From Nemertoderma westbladi (lineage: Eukaryota > Animalia > Xenacoelomorpha): DNA of 33,582 nt. The stretch lies in NCBI GenBank assembly GCA_032718475.1, contig JAUCBJ010004733.1, forward strand, positions 1-33,582. Direction: 5' to 3'. Below are positions 3,991 through 33,355 of the stretch, piece by piece; the first letter of the stretch is position 1, and the number at the start of each line of letters is the position of its first letter. Position numbers and translations under genes: made by a program. The notes under the pieces are model-generated. The model was not told where the DNA came from. It worked only from the letters and a program-made list of their open reading frames with translations, and made no database searches.

Positions 3991-6801
3991 GTGGACTGTA
4001 CCGTCTTTAATGCGCAGTCCTTGGGAAATAAATTGCCGGAACTGCATTTATTTCTAAAGGAGGGTAAATATGACGTAGTTGGAATTACGGAGACGTGGAT
4101 GAGGGAGTCCTTCACAGATCGAATGATAAATGGCGGCGAGAACTACAATGTCTATCGACAGGATCGCTCGGGTACTACAGGAGGAGGGGTTGCCATCTTG
4201 GTAAGGAAGGGAATAGAAGTCGTTAAGATAAAGTCTGTTTTTGATAAAGATGACTATGCACATCTTGAAGTTGTAGCCTTGGACCTTGTGGGACAAACGC
4301 CGTCTAGGTTGGTGTGTGTATACCGACCCCAGACTTCATCGGAATCATGGTCGTCTGCTAAAGACGAGAGTTTATGTCGCTGCCTGACTGAGCTATGTGA
4401 GACTAAACATCCCGTAGCTATATTTGGCGATTTTAACTTGCCGTCGTTGAATTGGAAAAATTATGATCATCCTGATACCGAGTTATATAATTTATTTGCT
4501 AATTTTTCTCTAGAAAATGGGTTAACTCAATTGCAACATGAACCCACACGCTTTGACAACACATTAGATTTAGTTTTTTCTTCAGATGATTTGTTTATCT
4601 CAGATGTATTTGTCACAACGCCCTTTTCCACTAGCGACCACTCTAGTGTGTGTTTTAGTATTTTGTCACCTAATCAGACAGAGTCAATTGAACTTAAATT
4701 AGGTTATTATGATTTTAGACACGCTAACTATGCAGATTTTTCAAAGTTTATTGACCGTAATAATTTTCGAAATGCGTTTGGTAATTGTAATACTGTTAAT
4801 GAGTACTGGTCTGTTCTTAGTGATGCACTAAAATCTGGTATTGATAAATTTGTGCCATTTAAAATGTTCAAGGTCAATTCCAGAACTAAGCTGTTACCGG
4901 CCTATGTGAGAAAACTTCAGAAAAATAAAAAAGCATTATGGCGCCGCAGACACACCATAAATGGAATGTCTGAATACAAACGTTGTGCTAAAGCCACTGC
5001 GAGAGCGGCGTTTAGAGCTGAATGCATTCGTGAAAACCATGTGCTTAGTTCTGGAAAGCCGGATGCAATATTTCAATTTGTAAACAGTAAGAGACACAAC
5101 CGATCTGGTATTTCACCCTTGAAATTTAAAGGGGACACTGTTGTCGATGATTGTACTAAGTCCAAAATTTTATCTCAGGTTTTTTCTGAAAACTTTACAT
5201 TAGATAATGACACTTTACCTATTTTTAATCATAGAGTGCCTAATAATATTAGTAAATCAACAATCAATTTGTCTCCCTTAAACGTGTATACTATACTTCG
5301 TAAAATGGATGCGAAAGTGAGTAATACTCCAGATGGTTTACCTAGCTTCATGTATTCTAAGTTAGCTCGTTGTTTATGTAGTCCGTTGTCTGTTATATTT
5401 AACGTCTCGTTTGTCACTCATGCTTTACCTACTGTGTGGTTAACTGCAAATATTGTGCCGATATTTAAGAAGGGCAACCCCACTGACCCATACAATTACC
5501 GCCCAGTTTCACTTACCTGTGTAGCGTGCAAGCTAATGGAACTCTGTGTTAAATCCGAACTAGCTGATTACTTACGAACGAATAAAATTATAACGAAGGC
5601 GCAACACGGATTCATGAAACGTCGATCCACATGCACCCAGCTTTTAACCTGTTCAAACGAATGGTTTAAGGTATTAGACTTTCGCCATAAAGTTGATGTG
5701 GTGTACATTGACTTAGCCAAAGCATTCGATTCGGTTGTGCACAATAAATTGATCCACAAATTGGCTAGTTACGGAATTACTGGTAACTTATTACTTTGGA
5801 TTGGTGCGTTCCTTAGTGATCGTAGACAATGTGTAGTTGTTGGTAATAGTACCTCGGAATTTGTAAAGGTTATATCTGGTACTGTACAAGGCAGTGTACT
5901 GGGGCCGCTATTGTTCCTGCTAGATGTAAACGATCTTCCTGCACAACTAGAAAACGTTTCCTGTGATCTATTTGCAGATGACTTAAAAATACACGCGCGT
6001 TCATCTGATAGCGATTTGCTTCACGCAGCACTTCGTAGTCTGGAGAAGTGGACAGCCGAATGGCAACTTACTATAGCGGCTCACAAGTGCACTGTAGTTC
6101 ATTTTGGTGGTAAACAAATAGATGTCCCGAAACAATATTTTCTTAACGGTATGTTACTTAAGCCCGATACAGAATGTAGAGATTTAGGCGTAACTTTTAG
6201 CGATAATTTAAAATTCGATCGACATTGTAAAGTTCAAGCTGCTAAAGGTTTTAAGATCGCAAATTTAATTTTTAGGTGCTTCCATACCAGTAATGTAAAA
6301 GCTTTATTAACGGCATATAAAGCGTACGTTCGGCCGCTGGTAGAATATTGTACTCCCGTATGGTCCCCTTTCCAACTGGGCTCCATTGATCTGATCGAAA
6401 GAGTCCAGCGTTATTTCACGCGTAGGTTATTTGCTCGATGCCGACTAGGTAATATAACCTACATGGAGCGTTTGCAGTTTTTGGACTTACAACCTCTAGA
6501 AGTCCGTAGGTTAATTTTCGATTTAAAAATGACATATTCCATTATTCACAATTGTGTTGATTTGGATTTTGATTCCTTTTTCACTGGTGCGAGTACACTT
6601 AACACAAGAGGTCATAATTTTAAACTGTTTCAATTTCGCGCTAGACTCCAAATTAGTAAATTTCGTTTTAGTAACCGAGTTGTTTCAATGTGGAATAATT
6701 TATCGGATGACATAGTGAACTCATCCAACAAAGATATTTTTACGTCTAGATTGAAGGAGGCAAATCTACTAACCTATTGTAAATTTAATCGATTGCTATA
6801 A
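3991..6801 (+). CDS. LINE ORF2: apurinic-like endonuclease + reverse transcriptase (CR1-type)
   Basis: Uninterrupted 936 codons. EN motifs NAQSL, ITETW, GGGVA, GDFN, LDL, SDH; RT motifs YRPVSLT, QHGF, DLAKAFD, QGSVLGP, FADD, DLGV; CR1-like C-terminus TRGHNFKL..FSNRVV.MWN.L. The frame is open from 3871 with no ATG before the EN motifs. Confidence 0.95.
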   Translation: MDCTVFNAQSLGNKLPELHLFLKEGKYDVVGITETWMRESFTDRMINGGENYNVYRQDRSGTTGGGVAILVRKGIEVVKIKSVFDKDDYAHLEVVALDLVGQTPSRLVCVYRPQTSSESWSSAKDESLCRCLTELCETKHPVAIFGDFNLPSLNWKNYDHPDTELYNLFANFSLENGLTQLQHEPTRFDNTLDLVFSSDDLFISDVFVTTPFSTSDHSSVCFSILSPNQTESIELKLGYYDFRHANYADFSKFIDRNNFRNAFGNCNTVNEYWSVLSDALKSGIDKFVPFKMFKVNSRTKLLPAYVRKLQKNKKALWRRRHTINGMSEYKRCAKATARAAFRAECIRENHVLSSGKPDAIFQFVNSKRHNRSGISPLKFKGDTVVDDCTKSKILSQVFSENFTLDNDTLPIFNHRVPNNISKSTINLSPLNVYTILRKMDAKVSNTPDGLPSFMYSKLARCLCSPLSVIFNVSFVTHALPTVWLTANIVPIFKKGNPTDPYNYRPVSLTCVACKLMELCVKSELADYLRTNKIITKAQHGFMKRRSTCTQLLTCSNEWFKVLDFRHKVDVVYIDLAKAFDSVVHNKLIHKLASYGITGNLLLWIGAFLSDRRQCVVVGNSTSEFVKVISGTVQGSVLGPLLFLLDVNDLPAQLENVSCDLFADDLKIHARSSDSDLLHAALRSLEKWTAEWQLTIAAHKCTVVHFGGKQIDVPKQYFLNGMLLKPDTECRDLGVTFSDNLKFDRHCKVQAAKGFKIANLIFRCFHTSNVKALLTAYKAYVRPLVEYCTPVWSPFQLGSIDLIERVQRYFTRRLFARCRLGNITYMERLQFLDLQPLEVRRLIFDLKMTYSIIHNCVDLDFDSFFTGASTLNTRGHNFKLFQFRARLQISKFRFSNRVVSMWNNLSDDIVNSSNKDIFTSRLKEANLLTYCKFNRLL

Positions 6802-8764: not shown

Positions 8765-10685
8765 CAGTCGGTGAGAAGTCAAAAATTGGACTTCAAGTCC
8801 AATTTTAGACTTCAAGTCCAATTTTGGACTCCAAAGTCCAATATTGGACTTTAGTACAACTCCAAGTGTACCCAAGCTGCCATACTGCAGTACTGTATAT
8901 CGGTATTTCAATCAAAACTGCATCCCGTATCAGTACATATATATTACATAATTACAATGCAACATTATTTTAATGATCAAATTAATTATTATATGTATTA
9001 TAAACAGGGATCGTACACATACAGTCAGACATTAGTTAGTAGTTACTTTTTGCGGTAGTGGTATAGCTTTGCGGTAGCCTTACTGCAGTACTGCCTTAGC
9101 GGTGTATACCGCGGTAGCGTAGTTGAGTTATAGTTGTATAGTTCATTCATACCCATACTGCCATACCTGTGGTATTTTCGTATGGCTGTATGGCAAAAAT
9201 AAGACTACTGTAAACTGTAACCTATTATGTTATTGAGTTAATGTTTATTGACTAATTGTTTTGATTAGGTTCACTGTGTCAAGTACAATGCACACATCTC
9301 TGCATCTCCAACCAGACACTATATCACTTTGGAGTTGGAGGTGTCTGTCTCATTCAGTCATTGGTTCCCCCAAGCTTGAACTAGAACAAAGCCGCCTCCA
9401 CTTTGCAGGACATCGATTTAAGCCGTGAGGACCAGCCAGTGCACCTCATGGAGTGAATAAGCATGGTGGACAGCCCATTCTTGAGACACATCTGTCTTAA
9501 AGGACACTGGCCTTGAAGATGCGGATGATCTAGCAAATGTCATGGGTGATAAGGCTGTCAGGCTGTAAGAGTGTAAGGGAGTTGTGGAGGCGCACTTTTG
9601 TCAACAAGCCGGCACAGCATTCTTAATACATAATAGGGCCTATACTGCTATATATATAATGCAGCTGCAATGAATCATGCCGATTGTAGTAGTAGTATGT
9701 GGTGAGGTTATAGGGCTCCTTGGCTCCTTCAATTGGTTAAGTCAAAAGTGGCCGTTTATTGTTTTAGTTAGAAAAGCCTGCCTCTGTAACCTGTTCCTTT
9801 CCCTCAATTTGTTTATGATTATGACGTCTGTTACTTGTTACTTCTGTACTTATTATGTGGAGACCCCAATGCGTTAATCAGTTACTAATCCCGTTTCATT
9901 ATCCTGTTATCCAGCTGTTTTATAATACCCTTCCTGTTGTATGGAAAAATTAGAAGAGATGGTGGTAGCATCAACTTGTAGTATTTCTTTCTGATAGGGC
10001 TCCCATAGCCTTAGACGAAATCGTAGCTTGTACTGTAGTTAGCCTTAGCAGCAGCTGCAGTTGGCTAACCTGGCATTGCTACCAGTATCCACGAAATATA
10101 ATTTGTAATTAAATATTTGTTGGAGCATAATCTAATCTAGTCCTAAAGACACTATAAAGTCCTCGGTACATAAGGCAGTAAGGTTAGACATAACATGAAT
10201 GTAAATTGTGAACTAAACAATATGTTAAAAGTAAAGTACAAAGTACCTAGAATGCTAGAATGTACCATTATATTCTAAGTACAGTACAGTCAGTACACTG
10301 AAGATAACATACAGAGCTGCAAAGGTAACTTTCCATAACTTAACAGCTGTCTGGCTGTCTCTCATCTGTCATGCTACATGTTCGATTCTCAATGTCACGT
10401 CCAAAATTAGACTTAAAGTCCAATATTGGACTTTTGTAAAAATTCAAAGCCTTATAAAAAAAGTTCCCCCTGGTGAATTTCAGGTCCCCCTGTTCAAAAC
10501 TCTTATTTTTTGATATATTTTCGATTAAAATTAAAAAATCCCGCCCGATCCTATTACCCAAGGCCCTGGAACAATTGGCTGATTTGAAGTCCAATATTGG
10601 ACTCACAGAAGTCCAATTTTGGACTTGAACTGGAGTCGAAGTCCAATTTTGGACTCAAGTCCAATTCTTGACTTCTCACCGACTG
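8765..10685 (+). mobile_element. Non-autonomous TIR DNA transposon 'A' (CAG...CTG ends, 5-bp TSD CCTTA) carrying a captured RTE 3' fragment
   Basis: TIR CAGTCGGTGAGAAGTCAA(A/G)AATTG at 8765 with its reverse complement ending 10685. CCTTA at 8760-8764 and 10686-10690. Subterminal AAGTCCAAWWTTGGACT palindromic repeats at both ends. It interrupts an otherwise continuous minus-strand RTE fragment. Confidence 0.85.
9268..9697 (+). mobile_element. RTE 3'-terminal fragment inside element A
   Basis: Aligns by eye to 1193-1557 (ggttcactgtgtcaagtacaatgcacacatc ... gcagctgc ... gtagtagtagta). Confidence 0.85.
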
Positions 10686-12220
10686 CCTTATCACCCATGA
10701 CATTTGCTAGATCATCCGCATCTTCAAGGCCAGTGTCCGTTAATACAGTAAGATGCGTCTCAATAAAGTCATGGCCATGGGCTGTCCACGATGCTTATTC
10801 ACGCCATGAGTTGCACGTGCACTGGCTGGTCCTCATGGCGAAAGCAATGTCCTGCAAAGCGGAGGCGGCTTTGTTCTAGTGTCAAGCTTGGGGCAGTGGG
10901 GGAACTATTGAGACACCTCCAGGCTCCAGCTCCAATGTCTGAATGTTATAGTGTCTGGTTGGAGATGTGTGCATTGTAGGCCTACTTGATACAGTGAAGT
11001 GAATAAACATTACACATTAACTCAATAACATAGGTCTGTCTGTAGGTTACACTTCCAACTTCTGCACTTACAGTAGTCTTATTTTTGCAATACAGCAATA
11101 CGAAAGTGCCACAGGCAACAGGTACGGATATGAATGAACTAGGGCCTATCAGCCTATACAGCTATAATTCAACTACTGCTACCGCGGTTGGCGGTATATA
11201 GTATATACCTGTATACCGCTATGGCTACCGCAAAGCCATAGGCTGATAGGGCTACCACTACCGCAAAAAGTAACTACTGTACATGTACAATCCCCTGATG
11301 CTAATCCCTGCTTATCTACTTATATTAATTAATTTGATAATTAAAATAATGTTGCATTGTAATTATGTAATATATTGTAATATGTACAGATGTATGTACA
11401 AATGTATGTACCAGTCAGCCAGTACCAGTCCATTCAGCCATTGCAGTGTAGTACCCGGTATTGATTTAAATACCGATATACACTACACTACTGCATTATG
11501 CCAGTTACAGAGTTATGCAGCGCAGCTATGTATGCTATTCCAGTATTGCAGTATTGGCTGATTGGGTCTGGGTGCTGGGTGTTGGGGCCATGACAGCATG
11601 ATGTTCTATCTCTATGATCTATTCATACTGTCATATGCTCATATGGGTACCGGCTGACCGGACCGGTACACTAGGAGTTGCACTACAGTCCAGAAGTCCA
11701 ATATTGGACTTTGGCGTCCAAAATTGGACTTGAAGTCTAAAATTGGACTTGAAGTCCAATTTTTGACTTCTCACCGACTTCCGTTCCGACTGTAGGGAGC
11801 GATTTTAACAATACAAAATGTTATGAAAGCGAGCGAGCGAAGCGAGCGAAATTTTTTTTTGTGGCAGATTCTTCTTTTCACATCTGCTCTGCACGAACTT
11901 TAAATTCGTTGAGAGCACAAGCTTTGAGAGCCCTCCTGTCGCTCAGCGCCAGGGCACTCAAATCGCGCCTGTCGCACCGCGCCAGTTCACAATATTCTGC
12001 AAATCGCGCCAGGACTCTCCGGCGCGATTTGCAGTCTTACTTCGCGCCAGTCTGCCAGTTATATTCACCTAACTGGTGTATGCATTGCAGTCGGAGGCCT
12101 AGAGTATTATTGATATTGAATATACATTGATAATTCTGCAATTGTTTAAACTTAATACAGTGATAATAATATTTGAGGCTGGCGGAGTTTGGGAGAATTC
12201 CAGATTTACAACCACCACAG

Positions 12221-12771
12221 ATGCCTCTTGCTCAGTTTCCAGATGATCCTTGGCAAAACCATGAGAAGAAACCTGAAGGTCTAGAAGGACAACCAAGTGA
12301 AGATCAAGCGATGGCTACCGAGGCGGCTGTCGATGAGCACGAAATCGAACTTATCGAGCACGTGAAGAACGGCTTCCAAAAAGCCGATCCGTCCCAATTC
12401 GAACTGCTCAAGGTTCTAGGCCAAGGATCTTTTGGGAAGGTGTTTTTGGTGAGAAAGATAACTGACACCGATAGCGGAACGTTGTACGCAATGAAAGTTC
12501 TAAAGAAAGCAACGCTGAAAGTACGGGATCGGATTCGGACCAAAATGGAGCGGAATATATTAGCCGATGTTCAGCACCCTTTTATTGTTCGACTGCATTA
12601 CGCTTTCCAAACTGAAGGTAAACTTTACCTTATTCTAGACTTCCTCCGTGGGGGTGATTTGTTCACTCGATTATCCAAGGAGGTTATGTTTACTGAAGAA
12701 GACGTTAAGTTTTATCTATCCGAGTTGGCGTTGGCATTGGATCATCTTCATTCGTTGGGAATTATTTACAG
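12221..12771 (+). CDS. RPS6KA: p90 ribosomal S6 kinase (RSK), coding exon 1
   Basis: Starts [12 protein letters not shown] (cf. vertebrate RSK MPLAQLADPWQ). N-terminal kinase motifs [40 protein letters not shown], ...GIIYR. Donor AG|GTTAGG at 12772, phase 2. Confidence 0.95.
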
Positions 12772-13502
12772 GTTAGGCCTAGATCCTTAGAGAGCTACCG
12801 GTTGCCGGTAGGGTAATATGATGCAAGTCAAAGTAGAGCTGATCAGGTCTACCTTTAGCTTTTATAGAGTTTACAATATACTGGTTCAGTTGTTCGTTTG
12901 GAGATACAAAAAAGTGCGGTTTCAGGGTTATATAAGAAGTACCGGTAATGCAATTTACGTGTGGTCCTTGATACAGAAACATAGTACCTAGGCAGGGAGT
13001 GAAGTGTAGTGTACCGTAATAATTGCTCTGGAATGTAAAGAGCTTGTGTTATGTGTAGTGTGTCTGTCTGTATCTTTATAATGGGTGTATGATGTAGGTT
13101 GAGCGCAAGGTCAGGTACTCACTCTCCTTATCCTTTTCTTTAATAGGCTGACACTGAAACTGTCTCCTGCAACGACATGACAAGTCCCACCCCATTATCT
13201 CAATACATCTTTTACTTTCGCTTTCAGATTTTTAATCTTTTAAAGAAATGTCGCCGAAAATACAAGTAACATAACAGCCACAGCGCACATTTGTTGGTAT
13301 AGGTGGATAATTTGGATATATTTATTGAATTAATATTGATTAATATTTCTTCATTGAGCATAATTTATTGAGATAGATTCAATAATTTGTACTAACGGTA
13401 TATATATACTCTAGATTAATACATTAATGGAAGTGAACCTACAATGTAACAAAACCATTATTACATTTTATATTAGCAATTTTACGTATTTTTATATTTT
13501 AG

Positions 13503-14740
13503 AGATTTAAAACCGGAGAATATATTACTTGATTCAGATGGGCATATCAAACTGACGGATTTCGGACTGAGCAAAGAGTCTATAAGCGACAACAACCCAA
13601 AAACATACAGTTTCTGCGGCACCGTGGAGTACATGGCGCCGGAAGTTGTGAATCGCAAGGGCCATTCCCAGGCGGCGGACTGGTGGAGTTACGGCGTGCT
13701 AATGTACGAGATGCTAACGGGGTCGCTGCCCTTCCAAGGCCCGAATCGTAAGGACACGATGGGACTTATACTCAAAGCGAAACTCGGTATGCCCCAGTTC
13801 CTGAGCGCAGAAGCGCAAAGTTTGTTGCGCTGTTTGTTTAAAAGGAATCCGGCGAACCGTCTCGGTTGCGGCGCCGGGGGGATCGAGGAACTCAAGAGAC
13901 ATCCTTTCTTCGAGACGATCGCTTGGGATCGACTCTTCCGTGGCGAAGTGACGCCGCCCTTCCGACCGTCGGTGTGTCGCGCCGAGGACACCTTCTACTT
14001 CGACCGGGAGTTCACGGCGCAGACCCCCAAGGACAGCCCCGGCATTCCCCCCAGCGCAACCGCCCATCTCCTCTTCAAGGGTTTCAGCTTCGTCGCTCCT
14101 TTAGTTCTCGCCGACGAGGAGATGCCCCCCGCGGTGCCCCCTCGCAGCGGCGGCCCCCCCAAGTCGCTGGACGCGCAACTCCTACAGAACGGGTTGGCCC
14201 CCGCGCGATACTTCCTCGACGACTACCAACTGAAGGAAGTCATCGGGAAGGGTTCGTACAGCGTCTGTCGCCACTGCGTCCACAAGGCGACCCAGCAGGA
14301 ATACGCCGTCAAGATGATAGACAAGTCGAGACGGGACCCCACAGAGGAGGTCGACATAGTGCTGAGGTACGGCGACCACCCCAATATAGTCAAAGTGCGG
14401 GATATTTACGACGACGGGAAAATCGTATACATGGTGATGGAGTTGATGCGGGGCGGCGAGCTGTTGGATAGGATCATCCGGCACAGACATCTGTCGGAAC
14501 GGGAGGCCGCCGAGATCATGTTCGTTATCATAAAGGTTGTCATGTTTCTCCACGAGGGCGGCGTCTGTCATCGCGATTTGAAACCGAGTAACATTATGTT
14601 CGCGGACGAGTCCGGCTCGCCTTCCTCCATTCGTATCTGCGATTTCGGGTTCGCTAAACAACTCCGCGCCGATAACGGTTTGCTTATGACGCCCTGCTAT
14701 ACCGCAAACTTTGTTGCGCCTGAGGTTCTTAAGAGACAAG
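13503..14740 (+). CDS. RPS6KA: RSK coding exon 2 (rest of N-terminal kinase domain, linker, most of C-terminal kinase domain)
   Basis: Acceptor ttttAG at 13501-13502 restores R-DLKPEN, DFG and YSFCGT. Turn motif TPKDSP, hydrophobic motif FKGFSF, C-terminal domain [26 protein letters not shown]. Donor G|GTGAGT at 14741, phase 1. Confidence 0.96.
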
Positions 14741-16076
14741 GTGAGTTTATTCGGCTGTGGGAACGGCACATCGATTAGGCCTATCATTCATTATTATTAC
14801 CGTTGGGCTCCGATTAGCGAAATCGGCAATGACCACTATGTTGGATATGTTGGATAGAACAGGTGACTTCCAGGTTGGCTGGCTTTACCATTACTTTAGG
14901 GGCTCAGATAAGAGGTTAACCTAGAAATACTTACTGATATCTTTAATTTCCGCATTCTACGTTACCATGATGGCCTATTGCCACTCAACAGTCAATGCTA
15001 ATCATCTACAGCCGCTATACGCTCAATCCAAAGTAGTTAGCCGTCTTATTGATTCACATTCATGGATTATCATTTATGGATAAAAAATGAGGGGCAAATT
15101 TGCCTTGAAAATACCATTTTGCACATTTGCACCTTATTTTTCAATGTGCAGTGCTGCATATGCATTATGCATGGCAGCAGGAGGGATGTTCATTCTTACT
15201 CCTTCTTATTTTCCTTCCGGTTTTTTAAGAATTTATATTTCCCACATCTTTTCCACGTATAAGAGATGTAGTTCCGTGTTGCGTAGGTGTGGCAGCGGTA
15301 TATTGTAATTATGCTACTAACGCACAATCGCGTAAATAATTCAAGATGTATAAGGTAACACGGTGTGTGGGAGGGAAGTTGTGTTCTACAGATAAGGGAG
15401 AGGGGTGTATTAACAATTGCAATTGGATATGTACGCCACATGTAAAAGTAGTGATTGGGATAATTAACTATTCCTTAAAGTAAATGAGTCCTTGTCAGAG
15501 TTGCATCTTAGTAAGAGAGTGGCCGGATGTACGGGATTGGTTATACAGCTAATATAATGATGATTACCTCTGTTGTTCATCGAACAGTGACACAGGTAGA
15601 TGATTAGCTAAGATGAAAGAATAGTATATTATATTAATCGCGTAACTGTTAATATTACGTTGATTTTAATAAATCTACTCGCGACAGGAAGGGGTAAATA
15701 ACTTTGAGCGAGAGCGTTGGTTGGGGGGGGGGGGGGGGGGGGGGGGGGCTGGGCTGGGGATTACATGGATGGTGAACCGTATATTTTCTATTGTCCCAAT
15801 AGCATAGCATAATATGTGTGTGCTATAGAGATTCCCATAGGTGCAGTGTGAGTGGCTATATGGGTGTACTGTACCCCACGCATTCATTCCGCTTCCTCCG
15901 CACTTTATTTCCATAATAGTGAACATTATTAGGTGTTACCTAGAAGAATTCCCGTAGCATACAATGTGCTACCGGAACTGGCTAAAATATTACATTAAAT
16001 AAATTGGAGATGAGCTGTTGCAAATGTAATTAAAGGTGTAATATTATGGTTTTGTTCATTAGGTGGGAGTTTGAAT

Positions 16077-16183
16077 GTCAGGGGCTAGTGGCTGAACTGG
16101 TTAACGCTACTGATGAGGCCTGATAGGCTGAAACGTACGTATAGCGCTGGTTCAACCCCCGGTGACGCGCTTTCCCATTTTTT
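16077..16183 (+). promoter_or_regulatory. tRNA-like internal Pol III promoter (A box, B box) with T6 terminator, framing the hammerhead
   Basis: A box TGGCTGAACTGG 16089-16100; B box GGTTCAACCCC 16149-16159; GTCA-GGGG/CCCC-GG-TGAC closing pairing; TTTTTT at 16178-16183. Confidence 0.7.
16105..16146 (+). ncRNA. Type I hammerhead ribozyme (minimal palindromic stem III)
   Basis: Stem I CGCUA/UAGCG; core CUGAUGA 16110-16116; stem II GGCCU-GAU-AGGCU; GAAA 16130-16133; stem III within the palindrome ACGUACGU; cleavage triplet GUA with predicted cut after 16141. Confidence 0.88.
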
Positions 16184-16480
16184 CCACTTCTGAACAAAAC
16201 CATAATATTACACCTTTAAAATATTACTCGCACAAGTTAACCTGAAACATAAATACCGGTACGTCATTAGTGCTGCGGTTACCATAACGCGGTCTTGACG
16301 GTACTCTACATCACTTACTCAGTCCATCTTTCATCCTCCAGTCCCTCATGCTCCACGTCATCCTACTCCATACTCGTGTCCATTCATACGGGATACTGCA
16401 CTATGATACAGTTTTCTAATTTCATTGCTCGTTATTGCTATTTTAAGCTGATGTAACGAACTATTATTGATGATTTTTAG

Positions 16481-16953
16481 GATACGATAAAACCTGCGAT
16501 ATTTGGAGTCTCGGCGTGTTGCTGTACACAATGTTATCCGGTAGGACGCCATTCGCCATGTCCAACAGTGACACACCGGAGGACGTCCTAGCGCGGATTG
16601 GAACCGGACACATCCGGTTGTCCGGGGACAACTGGGATTACGTTACCGACAGCGTCAAGTACCTCATATCGAACATGTTGTACGTGGACCCGGCCAGACG
16701 CTGGACGGCTGCCCAGATACTCAACAATACCTGGTTACAGAACCGACACCAACTCCCCGTGCAACAACTCAGTCTGGATCGGGACCTGTCCCAGGTGCGA
16801 CACGACGTGGCCACCACCTTCCGTGCTATGAAGCACGAGGCGGGGACGACGCCGGCCCTGGCCCCCATTACTGCGAGTCATTTAGCGCAACGACGGAAAG
16901 AGAAAAAGGTATCCATGGAAATAGATGCGGATATTCAGGCTCGCATTAAATGA
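16481..16953 (+). CDS. RPS6KA: RSK coding exon 3 (end of C-terminal kinase domain, ERK docking site, stop)
   Basis: Acceptor tttttAG at 16479-16480 gives G-YDKTCDIWSLGVLLYTML. ERK-docking LAQRR; TGA at 16951-16953. The three exons sum to 2262 nt = 753 aa + stop. Confidence 0.95.
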
Positions 16954-18854: not shown

Positions 18855-18967
18855 CATACATACATACATACATACATACATACATACATACATACATACA
18901 TACATACATACATACATACATACATACATACATACATACATACATACATACATACATACATACATAC
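18855..18967. repeat. (CATA)n microsatellite, about 28 units
   Basis: Perfect tetranucleotide run. Confidence 0.98.
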
Positions 18968-24539: not shown

Positions 24540-25544
24540 ATTTTAATACTATCTAATTTTGCAATTCTTGAAATGTTATACAAAGTCTGCCATCCATTTA
24601 AATAAAATTTATGTTTATTTGCTCTTGTTTAATGTTTATTTGTTCTAGAATTCTTTTAAATATTAATTAGTGCGCCCACTTTTTAAAAATAGAACAGATT
24701 ATTCTCTGTGATTGATGATACACCACAAATGGCCCCTCAGCTCGCCGCTACAACAGCCCACTGCTTATACGCGTAGGCCCTACCTATCTTATCTTTTATG
24801 ACTTAAAGTTATATATTTAAGTTCCACTTAAAATATTAACTATTTATTATATTGTGTATAATGTGGCACTTTATCTCACGTCGGTACCGAGTGTTAATAT
24901 CTACACGAACGAGCGAAGCGAGTGAGTGAAATATTGAAACGCGGGACCGAAGTGAGATAAAGGTAGGCCCCCTACATTATACACAATATGTTATCTTATT
25001 GTTAAATCTCTAGATTACTTAACAAGATATATAATAGATAATATTAGCCATTTCTTATATTAGTATGTTTTATTCACGATTCGCGAACATTTTCGTTATT
25101 ATATACCAAATTTCTAGAACTATGTTCTAGACCTCTTAAAAAGGTTACAGAAAAACATTCTGGAACATTTTTATATACCAGCAAACATGTTCTAGAACAA
25201 CAATTTAAAAATAACAAAAACTAGCTAATATATTAATTTTTAACTATTTAAAAAAAATTAATATAATTTATTATAAAAATAATAGCTAACATGTTGACGA
25301 ACATACTAGCTAGTATAAAAAAAATACCTCATATTAGGTAATTTCCTTAACTGCAACAAGAAATAGTTAATAATACACTCTGTTATTAATAGTAACCAAG
25401 ACAACGTGAGTGAGAAATAAATAGGTGGATTACTTACGGCTCGTCCATTTACAGATGTTCGTTATTTTCGTATTTTATTTTTCATATTTTTTTAGTATTA
25501 TTAGCACCATTTTCGTTAGCAAAAGTTGTATAAAAATTCCAAAA

Positions 25545-25890
25545 GCAGTTACGCACTTTGGGCAGTTTCGCACTGTGGGCGCACTGTGAGCAGTTACGCG
25601 GTGTGAGCAGTTACGCAGTGTGAGCAGTTACGCAGTGTGAGCAGTTACGCACTGTGAGCAGTTACGCACTGTGAGCAGTTACGCACTTTTGGCAGTTTCG
25701 CACTGTGGGCGCACTGTGAGCAGTTACGCGGTGTGAGCAGTTACGCGGTGTGAGCAGTTACGCAGTGTGAGCAGTTACGCAGTGTGAGCAGTTACGCACT
25801 GTGAGCAGTTACGCACTGTGAGCAGTTACGCACTTTTGGCAGTTTCGCACTGTGGGCGCACTGTGAGCAGTTACGCGGTGTGGGCAGTTA
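25545..25890. repeat. 17-bp minisatellite (GCAGTTACGCACTGTGA) with higher-order periodicity
   Basis: About 21 monomers; the variant order recurs at 130 and 147 bp. Confidence 0.95.
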
Positions 25891-27361: not shown

Positions 27362-28018
27362 TATGAGCACGTGGATGACTTCTGCTACATGGGATCATGG
27401 ATCAGAAAGTCAGATGGACCTTCGAATACGTAAGAGGAAGGCATGGGCAGCGTTAAATAGTCTGTCCAGGATTTGTAAGTCCATTAGAATAAAACAGAAC
27501 CTTAAGGTTCGATTATTTGTGACAGTAGTAGTACCAACACTCTTATGGGAGTCCATGGTGGCCTCTAATACTGCTGAGGATATACCAAATCTCTGGATGG
27601 CACTTTCACAAGAATGCTGCGCCGGGTTCATTGAGTCATTTACAATGAACACATCTCCAATCAGACTCTATACAACATTGGAGGTGTTCCATTCGTCTCC
27701 CCTAGCTTGACACTTGAACGGAACCGCCTCCGCTTTGCAGGACATTGCTTTCGCCGTGAGGACCAGCCAGTGCATAATCTTGTGCTTTGATGGCCTCCTG
27801 AAGCGAATAAGCATGGTGGACAGCCCTTGACTTTCTTGAGAGGCATCTTAAAGGACACTGGCCTCGTAGATACTGTACGGTTGATCTAGCAAATGTCATG
27901 GGTGGTAGGGAGTTGTGGCGGCGCAATTTTGTCGACAAGCCGCCACAGCATTCTTAATAATATATGTAATATATATATATAATACAGCTGCAGTAGCATG
28001 CCGATCGTTGTAGTAGTA
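27362..28018 (+). mobile_element. 5'-truncated, decayed RTE copy with (TAG)n tail
   Basis: Aligns by eye to 930-1557 (LRIRKRKAWAALNSLSRI, KVRLF) and ends gtagtagta. Confidence 0.88.
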
Positions 28019-31136: not shown

Positions 31137-31342
31137 GAAATGGAGGAATTGTTTGAAAAGAAATTACTTTCTGCGAGCTACGAACAGGCTGTGGAAGAGT
31201 CCAGGCTGGAACTGGAGTTGAATAGCGATATGTTCTACTTGGATAACGCGAATAAACAGTGTCAGCATTGCGACCTAACCATCGAACATACGCATGATAA
31301 TATCGATTTACAGGCGGACACAATGATAAGCGGAAATTACCG
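31137..31342 (+). CDS. Probable next exon of the unidentified gene
   Basis: Acceptor ttgttcAG (31135-31136) is in phase 0 with the 29835 donor, giving ...CVEQ|EMEELFEKKLL...CQHC. The first donor-like CG|GTTAGT is at 31343; otherwise the frame stops at 31367. Confidence 0.5.
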
Positions 31343-32781
31343 GTTAGTTCACAGAAGGACAGAATGATAAGCGGAAATTACCGGTTAGTTCACAGAAGGA
31401 CACAATGATAAGCGGAAATTATCGGTTAGTTCACAGAAGGACACAATGATAAGCGGAAATTATCGGTGAGTTCTCAGAAGGACACAATGATAGCGGAAAT
31501 TACCGGTTAGTTCACAGAAGGACACAATGATAGCGGAAATTACCGGTTAGTTCACAGAAGGACACAATGATAGCGGAAATTACCGGTTAGTTCACAGAAG
31601 GACACAATGATAGCGGAAATTACCGGTTAGTTCACAGAAGGACACAATGATAAGCGGAAATTATCGGTGAGTTCTCAGAAGGACACAAAGATATTCGGAA
31701 ATTATCGGTTAGTTCACAGAAGGACTCAAAGATATTCGGAAATTATCGGTTAGTTCACAGAAGGACACAATGATAAAGCGGAAATTATCGGTTAGTTCTC
31801 AGAAGGACACAATAGATATTCGGAAATTACCGGTTAGTTCACAGAAGGACACAATGATAAGCGGAAATTACCGATTGGTTCACAGAAGGACACAATGATA
31901 AGCGGAAATTATCGGTGAGTTCTCAGAAGGACACAAAGATATTCGGAAATTATCGGTTAGTTCACAGAAGGACTCATAGATATTCGGAAATTATCGGTTA
32001 GTTCACAGAAGGACACAATGATAAAGCGGAAATTATCGGTGAGTTCTCAGAAGGACACAATAGATATGTCGGAAATTACCGGTTAGTTCACAGAAGGACA
32101 CAATGATAAAGCGGAAATTATCGGTTAGTTCACAGAAGGACACAATGATAAGCGGAAATTATCGGTTAGTTCACAGAAGGACACAATGATAAGCGGAAAT
32201 TACCGGTTAGTTCACAGAAGGACACAATGATAGCGGAAATTATCGGTTAGTTCACAGAAGGACACAATGATAAGCGGAAATTATCGGTTAGTTCACAGAA
32301 GGACACAATGATAAGCGGAAATTACCGGTTAGTTCACAGAAGGACACAATGATAGCGGAAATTATCGGTTAGTTCACAGAAGGACACAATAGATATGCGG
32401 AAATTACCGGTTAGTTCACAGAAGGACACAATGATAAAGCGGAAATTATCGGTTAGTTCACAGAAGGACTCAAAGATATTCGGAAATTATCGGTTAGTTC
32501 ACAGAAGGACTCAATGATATGCGGAAATTATCGGTTAGTTCACAGAAGGACACAATGATAAAGCGGAAATTATCGGTGAGTTCTCAGAAGGACACAATGA
32601 TATGCGGAAATTATCGGTTAGTTCACAGAAGGACACAATGATAAAGCGGAAATTATCGGTTAATTCACTTGACACAATTGAAACGGAAATTATCGGTTAG
32701 TTAACAGAATGACACAATGAGATACGGAAATTACCGGTTAATTTACAGAAGGATACAATGAAAAACGGAAATTACCGGTTA
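31316..32781. repeat. ~41-bp tandem satellite, about 35 copies
   Basis: Unit GACACAATGATAAGCGGAAATTA(C/T)CGGTTAGTTCACAGAAG with 40-43 bp variants; the last three units are the most diverged. Confidence 0.97.
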
Positions 32782-33355
32782 GGGTTAAAATCACTAAAAG
32801 TGGCCAAACTTAAAGATGGGATTTTCGTCAAAAAATTTTTCTTTCAAAACCTATAAACATATATATCATTCGAAAGCTCTTTTTAAGAAGAATTCGATGA
32901 GCACGTTGGTCAGCTATTAAAATTTATTTCACTAATTCTATTTGGGTTTTAAGTTTTTTTAGTTAGTTTAAGTTTTAATGCCATTTTCGCATAGTAATAG
33001 ATAGAGCCTGTAATGGGGACACATTACAGGGGTGGACATTTCCTGCTTATTCTTATTTCAATAAACTTCTACATATTTTATAATGTTTGGGCAAGTTGAT
33101 AAGCCCGCTAAATTTCCTTTTCAAAAATGTGAACCAATAAGACTTATACGTTTCTTGGGAATATTTTATTGGCATTTTAAGTGGCATTACGGAGGGGGGG
33201 GGGGGGGGGAGGTGGGTGGGGTGGGGGGTCATAGCAAGCGACACACCCCGCCTTCGTAACTGTGAACTACCGGTACCCCTACATGATTATACTAACATGC
33301 TATTGGCTGAAATTTGGACAGCGAACATGGGAAAGATAGTTCTTTCATATAATAT
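32782..33355 (-). mobile_element. Partial inverted copy of the 20968-21888 element
   Basis: Begins with TIR gggttaaaatcactaaaagtggccaaa. Blocks at about 32870, 33010 and 33280-33345 are reverse complements of about 21770-21835, 21590-21640 and 21320-21395. Confidence 0.8.

Follow-up and report, generated by a model that had tools for sequence, protein, structure and literature searches.

The window, the 33,582-nt stretch of DNA that was analysed, contains a gene for an RSK-like (p90 S6) kinase, whose exons were located by tblastn with mouse RSK at 12341-12772, 13492-14742 and 16480-16914 on the plus strand. The exons of this gene are very long; one spans residues 180-587 of mouse RSK with 69% identity, and the exon for the N-terminal kinase is 86% identical to mouse. 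The best identities in the exon search were 68-69%, to vertebrate RSKs, and nothing closer was found; the host is probably an animal other than a vertebrate, and the 86% identity would speak against a flatworm. A hammerhead ribozyme motif lies in the last intron of the gene, on the sense strand. The same intron carries a run of 26 G residues (15723-15748). Three short arrays built from a roughly 19-nt palindrome (TTGGACTTCAAGTCCAATT-like) are found upstream of the kinase gene, at 8786-8851, 10630-10673 and 11693-11759, and may be hairpin-forming repeats or remnants of MITEs. Elsewhere there are an intact 936-aa open reading frame with APE endonuclease and RVT_1 domains (3991-6801, plus strand), possibly an active LINE; more reverse-transcriptase fragments at 1-575 and 903-1445, and a related one at 27363-27710; a satellite whose unit is 41 bp long (31316-32782, 35.8 copies, 91% match, 124-bp higher-order period); a 17-bp minisatellite (25544-25890, 21.5 copies); and a (CATA)28 repeat (18855-18967).

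The features around the hammerhead are, in order along the window:

15983-15993, no strand: left target-site duplication, TAAAATATTAC, identical to the 11-mer at 16217-16227.
15994-16058, minus strand: inverted, 5'-truncated copy of the family 3' tail, its inner 29 nt forming a perfect inverted repeat with the direct tail.
15994-16029, minus strand: outer 36 nt of the inverted tail copy, with no counterpart after 16219 in the window copy.
16030-16058, minus strand: left arm of the inverted repeat, 29 nt, identical to the right arm at 29 of 29 positions.
16059-16075, plus strand: 17-nt junction segment from the inverted to the direct copy, a trough in depth.
16076-16219, plus strand: direct copy with tRNA-type boxes, hammerhead, T6 and 3' tail, delimited by the starts and ends of other copies.
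16089-16100, plus strand: A-box-like motif, TGGCTGAACTGG, a regular-expression match.
16093-16100, plus strand: 5' strand of the distal helix I extension, UGAACUGG, forming 8 pairs with CUGGUUCA at 16147-16154.
16101-16104, plus strand: 4-nt bulge (loop 1), UUAA in the window copy, from the sequence.
16105-16109, plus strand: 5' strand of helix I, CGCUA, paired with 16142-16146 (UAGCG).
16110-16116, plus strand: hammerhead core C3 to A9, CUGAUGA, from the sequence, the Rfam alignment and the descriptor.
16117-16129, plus strand: helix II, GGCC/GGCU (16117-16120 with 16126-16129), round the loop UGAUA; in the window copy it is closed at 10.1-11.1 by a G-U pair (both from the pair listing).
16130-16132, plus strand: core G12, A13 and A14 (GAA; with A15.1, GAAA at 16130-16133), from the sequence and the Rfam alignment.
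16133-16140, plus strand: helix III palindrome, ACGUACGU, A15.1 to U16.1, from the sequence and the cofold.
16141-16142, plus strand: predicted cleavage site between A17 (16141) and U1.1 (16142), from hammerhead numbering.
16142-16154, plus strand: helix I, 3' strand (16142-16146), followed by the 3' strand of the distal extension (16147-16154), from the pair listing.
16149-16159, plus strand: B-box-like motif, GGTTCAACCCC, the only B-box match of the regular expression in the window on either strand.
16178-16183, plus strand: T6 run, a predicted Pol III terminator inside the repeat unit, from the sequence.
16191-16219, plus strand: right arm of the 29-nt inverted repeat, that is, the 3' tail of the direct copy; the arm match stops exactly here.
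16217-16227, no strand: right target-site duplication, TAAAATATTAC, identical to the 11-mer at 15983-15993.

The hammerhead at 16105-16146 on the plus strand is a complete type I motif, every listed element of which was confirmed at its position. Three helices surround the core, and it is helix I, with 5 bp and an 8-bp extension, that has the open ends; helix II has 4 bp, and helix III consists of 2 bp and a tetraloop in the monomer and of 8 bp between two molecules. All the residues required of a type I core (C3, U4, G5, A6, N7, G8 and A9; G12, A13 and A14; the pair A15.1-U16.1; and H17, which is not G) are found, at 16110-16116, 16130-16133, 16140 and 16141. The hammerhead and the distal helix together comprise 19 pairs, each of which was checked base by base, and the distal extension (16093-16100/16147-16154) is also present in the minimum-free-energy fold. 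The predicted cut falls after A16141, a position that follows from the established hammerhead numbering. A descriptor that required the core, at least 5 bp in helix I, at least 3 bp in helix II, at least 2 bp in helix III and an H17 other than G was matched at a single site when both strands of the window were scanned, and in none of 300 dinucleotide-preserving shuffles. The consensus strings behind this descriptor, and behind the regular expressions for the A and B boxes, are general knowledge.

An Infernal search with the Rfam model Hammerhead_1 (RF00163) had been proposed as a check in the earlier note, and its outcome was divided: in a 55-nt search the model was aligned over its full length (model 1-45 with 16104-16147), but the score was 16.4 bits (E = 0.062), under the gathering score of 34. 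No Rfam model reached its gathering score when the whole window was searched. The hammerhead thus conforms to the textbook consensus and falls short of the curated threshold of Rfam. In two respects the motif looks like the Hammerhead_1 consensus: stem III is a palindrome without a loop, and the AUAGG side of loop 2 is shared. The best match within the clan, to Hammerhead_3 in a 351-nt search (19.9 bits against 48.5), was permuted and used unrelated upstream bases as stem III, and the type I alignment was preferred to it. A match to MIR2646 (22.4 bits, gathering score 245) reflects the long hairpin only.

Promoter boxes were sought with a regular expression in which a B box comes 20-70 nt after an A box. 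There is one such site in the window (16089-16159), and at least one was found in 2 of 500 shuffles; the hammerhead sits between this sole pair of boxes. Chance occurrence was rejected by the shuffle controls for the hammerhead and for the combined boxes, and three claims of the earlier note were borne out, namely that a type I hammerhead lies complete between an A and a B box, that the A- and B-box sequences can pair with each other past a UUAA bulge (the 8 pairs of the distal helix) and that stem III is a tiny palindrome. Internal A and B boxes, the mark of a tRNA-derived SINE, are present. The description of the locus as a tRNA-like cassette holds for the boxes only: ARAGORN found no tRNA in the stretch at default stringency, with introns allowed or not, which confines the tRNA likeness to the promoter boxes. 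Calls made by ARAGORN at 60-80% of the score threshold were mutually inconsistent and were discarded.

The abundance of the sequence was determined with contigs from four public DNA runs of one organism (X1-X4), aligned at 80% likeness. The interval 15994-16219 is a repeat, with a summed depth three to four orders of magnitude above that of its flanks, about 10,000-fold. For the bin 16111-16119, the summed contig depth was 97,779 in X1, 272,148 in X2 and 324,931 in X3, compared to flank depths of 6.0-7.6, 22.4 and 32.7, and the number of contigs aligned was 1,223, 2,317 and 1,522, respectively. The X1 contigs fall into likeness classes of at least 99%, 95-99%, 90-95% and below 90% with 180, 370, 466 and 207 members. 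Summed depth is not copy number, and the family data are summary tables of contigs rather than single copy sequences; the depths are read only as a sign that the family numbers thousands of copies, in the region of 10^4. There is no further copy inside the window, and a search of public metagenome, viral and genome contig collections for relatives of the element gave 0 matches. Compared to the X2 and X3 contigs, the single-copy flanks (15830-15953 and 16367-16471) show several substitutions as well as indels of 19-23 nt, which points to high polymorphism in the species or to another strain.

At the left boundary of the repeat, the X1 depth jumps from about 100 in the bin 15985-15993 to 44,556 in the bin 15994-16002. 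The flanking target-site duplication is 11 nt, or 8 nt if the element ends at 16219. Taken together, the flanking 11-mer, the depth boundaries and the asymmetry of the arms point to a single insertion event. The window copy is one insertion, made up of an inverted truncated tail, the 17-nt junction and a direct copy that lacks the outer tail. The earlier note mentions neither the inverted repeat nor the target duplication nor this fold-back arrangement. In other copies the direct tail runs on past 16219, where it matches the reverse complement of 15995-16029, and loose ends at 16219 occur in 17-22 contigs per run in X1 and X2. The junction itself (16059-16075) has a depth of 6,552 in X1, compared to 7.6 for single-copy sequence, about 900-fold, and is common to a minority of copies.

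The end positions of other copies were taken from the 32 longest pieces listed, beyond which there are 5,262 further pieces. Ten of the 32, from about 6 distinct loci, start at 16076-16078, several of them inside contigs of 0.5-2 kb, and the right ends fall at 16199-16221. The 5' ends thus precede the A box by 11-13 nt and lie where a tRNA-type promoter would be expected to start transcription. The T6 run is conserved across the family, with variants at no more than 0.2% in X1-X3 among those listed. Even so, 27 of the 32 listed pieces run past 16183, and the X1 depth at 16183-16200 is 113,000-123,000, compared to 98,000 in the core. The family copies thus read through T6, and the RNA that was copied is not a Pol III transcript terminated there. 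The earlier note had proposed a stand-alone Pol III RNA of about 100 nt; this was not sustained, as the locus is one copy of a repeat of some 10^4 copies, most of whose listed pieces pass T6.

The window copy departs from the family majority at two positions of the helices. Position 16104 is G in more than 99% of the family depth (99.7-100%) and A in the window copy; the G would pair with C16147, giving a sixth pair and the usual 6-bp helix I. Position 16129 is C in 67%, 72%, 59% and 86% of the depth in X1 to X4, respectively, and T in the window copy; the C provides the standard G10.1-C11.1 closure of stem II. The T followed by G at 16129 would match the expected product of CpG decay. Judged by the family majorities at both positions, the window copy is slightly decayed, and it is probably a weakened one. 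The G-U closure and the 4-nt bulge are, by the same comparison, traits of the window copy or of a minority subfamily. The remark of the earlier note that stem II closes with G-U is consequently true of the window copy and describes a minority state of the family. The subfamily with U11.1 accounts for 14-41% of the depth, which implies that amplification did not need the standard closure.

Three other variants are common in the family. In the distal helix, 16096 is changed from A to G in 41%, 58%, 46% and 7% of the depth in X1 to X4, the pair being kept as G-U; in loop 2, 16123 is changed from A to T in 47%, 59%, 46% and 8%; and in the palindrome, 16137 is changed from A to G in 2.6%, 13.6%, 5.0% and 4.0%, which is wobble-compatible in the dimer helix. 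Among the variants listed for the hammerhead, four reach at least 5% in any of X1-X3 (16104, 16123, 16129 and 16137), and none of them is in the invariant core. The only listed core variant at 1% or more in X1-X3 is at N7 (16114; 1.2-1.9%), a free position of the consensus, and those at G5, G12 and A15.1 do not exceed 0.6%. That the 12 conserved core positions are free of variants is not significant (P about 0.17, a hypergeometric estimate with 5 variable sites in 42, from the variants listed). The common helix variants at 16096, 16129 and 16137 are all wobble-compatible, for which the chance is about 1 in 8, calculated from per-site shares only and without linkage. The low variation of the core fits a maintained ribozyme, and proves little.

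When two molecules were cofolded with ViennaRNA, the prediction was precisely the double hammerhead, joined through 8 bp of ACGUACGU, at -65.4 kcal/mol compared to 2 x -28.5 (-57.0) for the separate molecules, a ddG of -8.4 kcal/mol. For the monomer (16093-16154), the hammerhead fold was calculated at -12.8 kcal/mol and a competing minimum at -16.8 kcal/mol. The fold of the 107-nt segment did not stand out from its shuffles (z = +0.59), a measure that is uninformative for a hammerhead. Short palindromic stems III have been linked to dimeric action in the available text of PMC4209133 and in the legend to Figure S8 of PMC3088659, and dimer behaviour of canonical animal type I hammerheads is reported in the portions available of PMC4209133, PMC7229834 and PMC3088659.

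On balance, the element is probably a hammerhead SINE or a retrozyme-like retroelement, for which cleavage, action as a dimer and transcription by Pol III are predictions. TFIIIC would bind the A and B boxes, and Pol III would start near 16076-16078, where copies elsewhere begin. Two transcripts would pair through ACGUACGU into the double hammerhead, from which cleavage is predicted to be concentration-dependent; a lone transcript would be mostly in the inactive fold. A cut after A16141 would leave the A box and the B box on different pieces, so that daughters bearing the promoter could come only from uncut or religated RNA. The RNA to be copied would read through T6, and a Penelope-type enzyme would integrate it, leaving the inverted truncated copy on the 5' side and an extra one-sided tail of 30-40 bp; the inverted repeat, the flanking duplication and the one-sided outer tail of the window copy agree with what PMC8557442 describes for Penelope-type insertions.

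A more specific reading is possible, and we put it forward tentatively. The family would consist of mini-retrozymes, around ten thousand in number, that derive from tRNA and are driven by Pol III. The hammerhead would stand in for the anticodon arm, the promoter sequences of the D- and T-loops would double as distal helix I, the cut would split the promoter, and dimerisation would serve as a dose sensor. If this is true, the dose sensor would decide between a promoter-bearing template and a cut transcript, and the family would be the first retrozyme-like element with a promoter of its own. For the host, the insertion adds a hairpin of 29 bp, in the sense orientation, to an intron of the RSK-like kinase gene.

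Of the other explanations, the best placed is that the insertion is the fold-back stump of an autonomous Penelope-like element, the unit of about 140-180 nt being its ribozyme-bearing end repeat (pLTR or 3' end), with A and B boxes that are incidental or belong to that repeat. We consider this unlikely, though a serious competitor. Insertions of Penelope-like elements are described in the available text of PMC8557442 as having an inverted 5'-truncated copy beside the 5' end and a tail of 30-40 bp at one end only, and the window copy has both features: its inverted 5'-truncated copy lies at the 5' side, and its additional tail is confined to one end. The depth also climbs from 5' to 3' over 16057-16155, as it does with 5'-truncated retroelements, and retrozymes are related to pLTRs in what is available of a preprint (10.64898/2026.07.22.740005). 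Against a stump, the pieces in longer contigs that start at 16076-16078 at about 6 loci suggest a discrete short unit, and the hammerhead is canonical, compared to the minimal ones of animal Penelope-like elements, with a long helix II and no loops (PMC4209133, available text). The window contains no Penelope-type open reading frame or reverse transcriptase; those reading frames that have Pfam matches belong to APE+RT LINEs. A short non-autonomous element is favoured over a Penelope stump by two features, the clustering of the 5' ends and the canonical form of the hammerhead.

It is distinctly improbable, and more so than a stump, that the element is a tRNA-derived SINE mobilised by a LINE, with the inverted tail as a by-product of twin priming or template switching and the hammerhead as a passenger. 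The A and B boxes, the discrete 5' end and a target duplication of variable length agree with such a SINE, and APE+RT LINEs, one with the intact 936-aa reading frame, are at hand in the window. The 65-nt tail, however, has a best score of only 32 elsewhere in the window, compared to a mean of 27.7 and a maximum of 41 for the shuffled query, and an A-rich or microsatellite tail is absent. In twin priming it is an upstream portion of the RNA that is inverted, and the mechanism is not known to leave one 3' tail in duplicate at the two ends of an insertion. A one-sided tail of 36 nt is in addition a Penelope-type feature, according to the available text of PMC8557442.

There is very little to commend the view that the element is a MITE, a fold-back DNA transposon carrying the hammerhead and a tRNA-like segment as passengers between its terminal inverted repeats. 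It would explain the perfect 29-nt inverted repeat, the 190-nt hairpin of which has a folding z of -8.2, and the TTAA at the outer end of each arm. In each of X1-X3, moreover, 11-19 contigs match the window from 16058 rightwards and share one different, arm-like sequence to the left of it; the fold-back form may itself be propagated, as a minority subfamily with an inverted arm of its own. The equal terminal inverted repeats and the fixed duplication of a MITE are nevertheless not found, since the ends are asymmetric at insertion, with 65 nt compared to 29 nt inside an intact duplication of 8-11 bp. The depth of both arms summed is about 1x that of the core and not 2x, from which most copies have one arm, and among the pieces listed other copies start at about 16076, have no left arm and end variably at 16199-16219. 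Finally, domestication by the host, with the locus regulating the RSK-like gene as an intronic ribozyme or a small Pol III gene, would suit the sense orientation in the last intron of that gene, and intronic hammerheads are conserved in amniotes (PMC6155905, available text), but it can be virtually dismissed, the locus being one among thousands of copies, off the family majority at two helix positions and young, with a perfect inverted repeat.

A hammerhead SINE or retrozyme-like retroelement, the reading that we prefer, can be compared with several known systems. One likeness is to the metazoan non-LTR retrozymes (PMC7229834, Cervera and de la Pena 2020; review PMC7761336), which in the available parts of those papers share with the present family the type I topology and short palindromic helix III, a non-coding carrier of low GC and 150-450 bp, target duplications longer than 4 bp and a suspected mobilisation by Penelope-type enzymes. 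Retrozymes are, however, defined there by tandem repeats and abundant circular RNA, whereas the window has a single unit with an inverted fragment. Head-to-tail repeats of 150-450 bp are not found in the window, which has one hammerhead only, and there are no tandem (unit-length 'goes back') joints among the joints listed. Retrozymes also seem to be without promoters, as far as the text available from PMC7761336 indicates, in contrast to the A and B boxes that flank the ribozyme here.

The SINE-like elements Sm-alpha and Sj-alpha of schistosomes (PMC6765202 and PMC2770079, in part) are likewise short, of high copy number and equipped with a Pol III-type promoter and a type I hammerhead. Sm-alpha, the one classical case of a Pol III element with a hammerhead, which is compared here by secondary descriptions, is 'a promoter followed by a hammerhead' in the excerpt from PMC6765202, rather than a hammerhead between the boxes; its head is called tRNA-Gln by tRNAscan-SE in that from PMC2770079, whereas ARAGORN finds no tRNA here; and its length is given as 335 bp in that from PMC8490949, compared to a unit of about 140-180 nt. 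The Sm-alpha order of a promoter and then a hammerhead, and its recognisable tRNA head, are thus not seen in the window copy.

Penelope-like insertions and the hammerheads of their pLTRs (available text of PMC4209133 and PMC8557442) have in common with the element the inverted 5'-truncated copy, the one-sided tail, the target duplication and the expected action as a dimer. They differ in that those of animals carry minimal hammerheads; the unit here appears to be short, with a discrete 5' end, and no reverse transcriptase/GIY-YIG reading frame is linked to it in the window. With tRNA-derived SINEs and their type 2 Pol III promoter the element shares a tRNA-like spacing of the boxes (60 nt from start to start), a target duplication, and an A box that lies 11-13 nt downstream of the 5' ends. 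The differences are that a ribozyme replaces the anticodon-arm region, that T6 is inside the unit, and that there is no A-rich tail and no match of the tail to the LINEs of the window.

Taken alone the motif is ordinary, since many hammerheads have been described from the repeats of animals. No description of a hammerhead between an A and a B box was found in a search of the literature and by motif letters, which took in few subscription journals and not Repbase; the supplementary figures of PMC4209133 and PMC7229834 may show look-alikes. With 6 bp in helix I and 4 bp in helix II for the family majority, and with partners in its loop and bulge, the ribozyme resembles the canonical metazoan hammerhead of PMC4209133 (available text). 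Judged by these features it is a member-like canonical metazoan type I hammerhead, and it is its position inside the promoter that is unusual. A ribozyme within a split tRNA-type promoter would show an autonomous route of transcription for such elements, and with the split, cleavage would be tied directly to promoter loss in its products.
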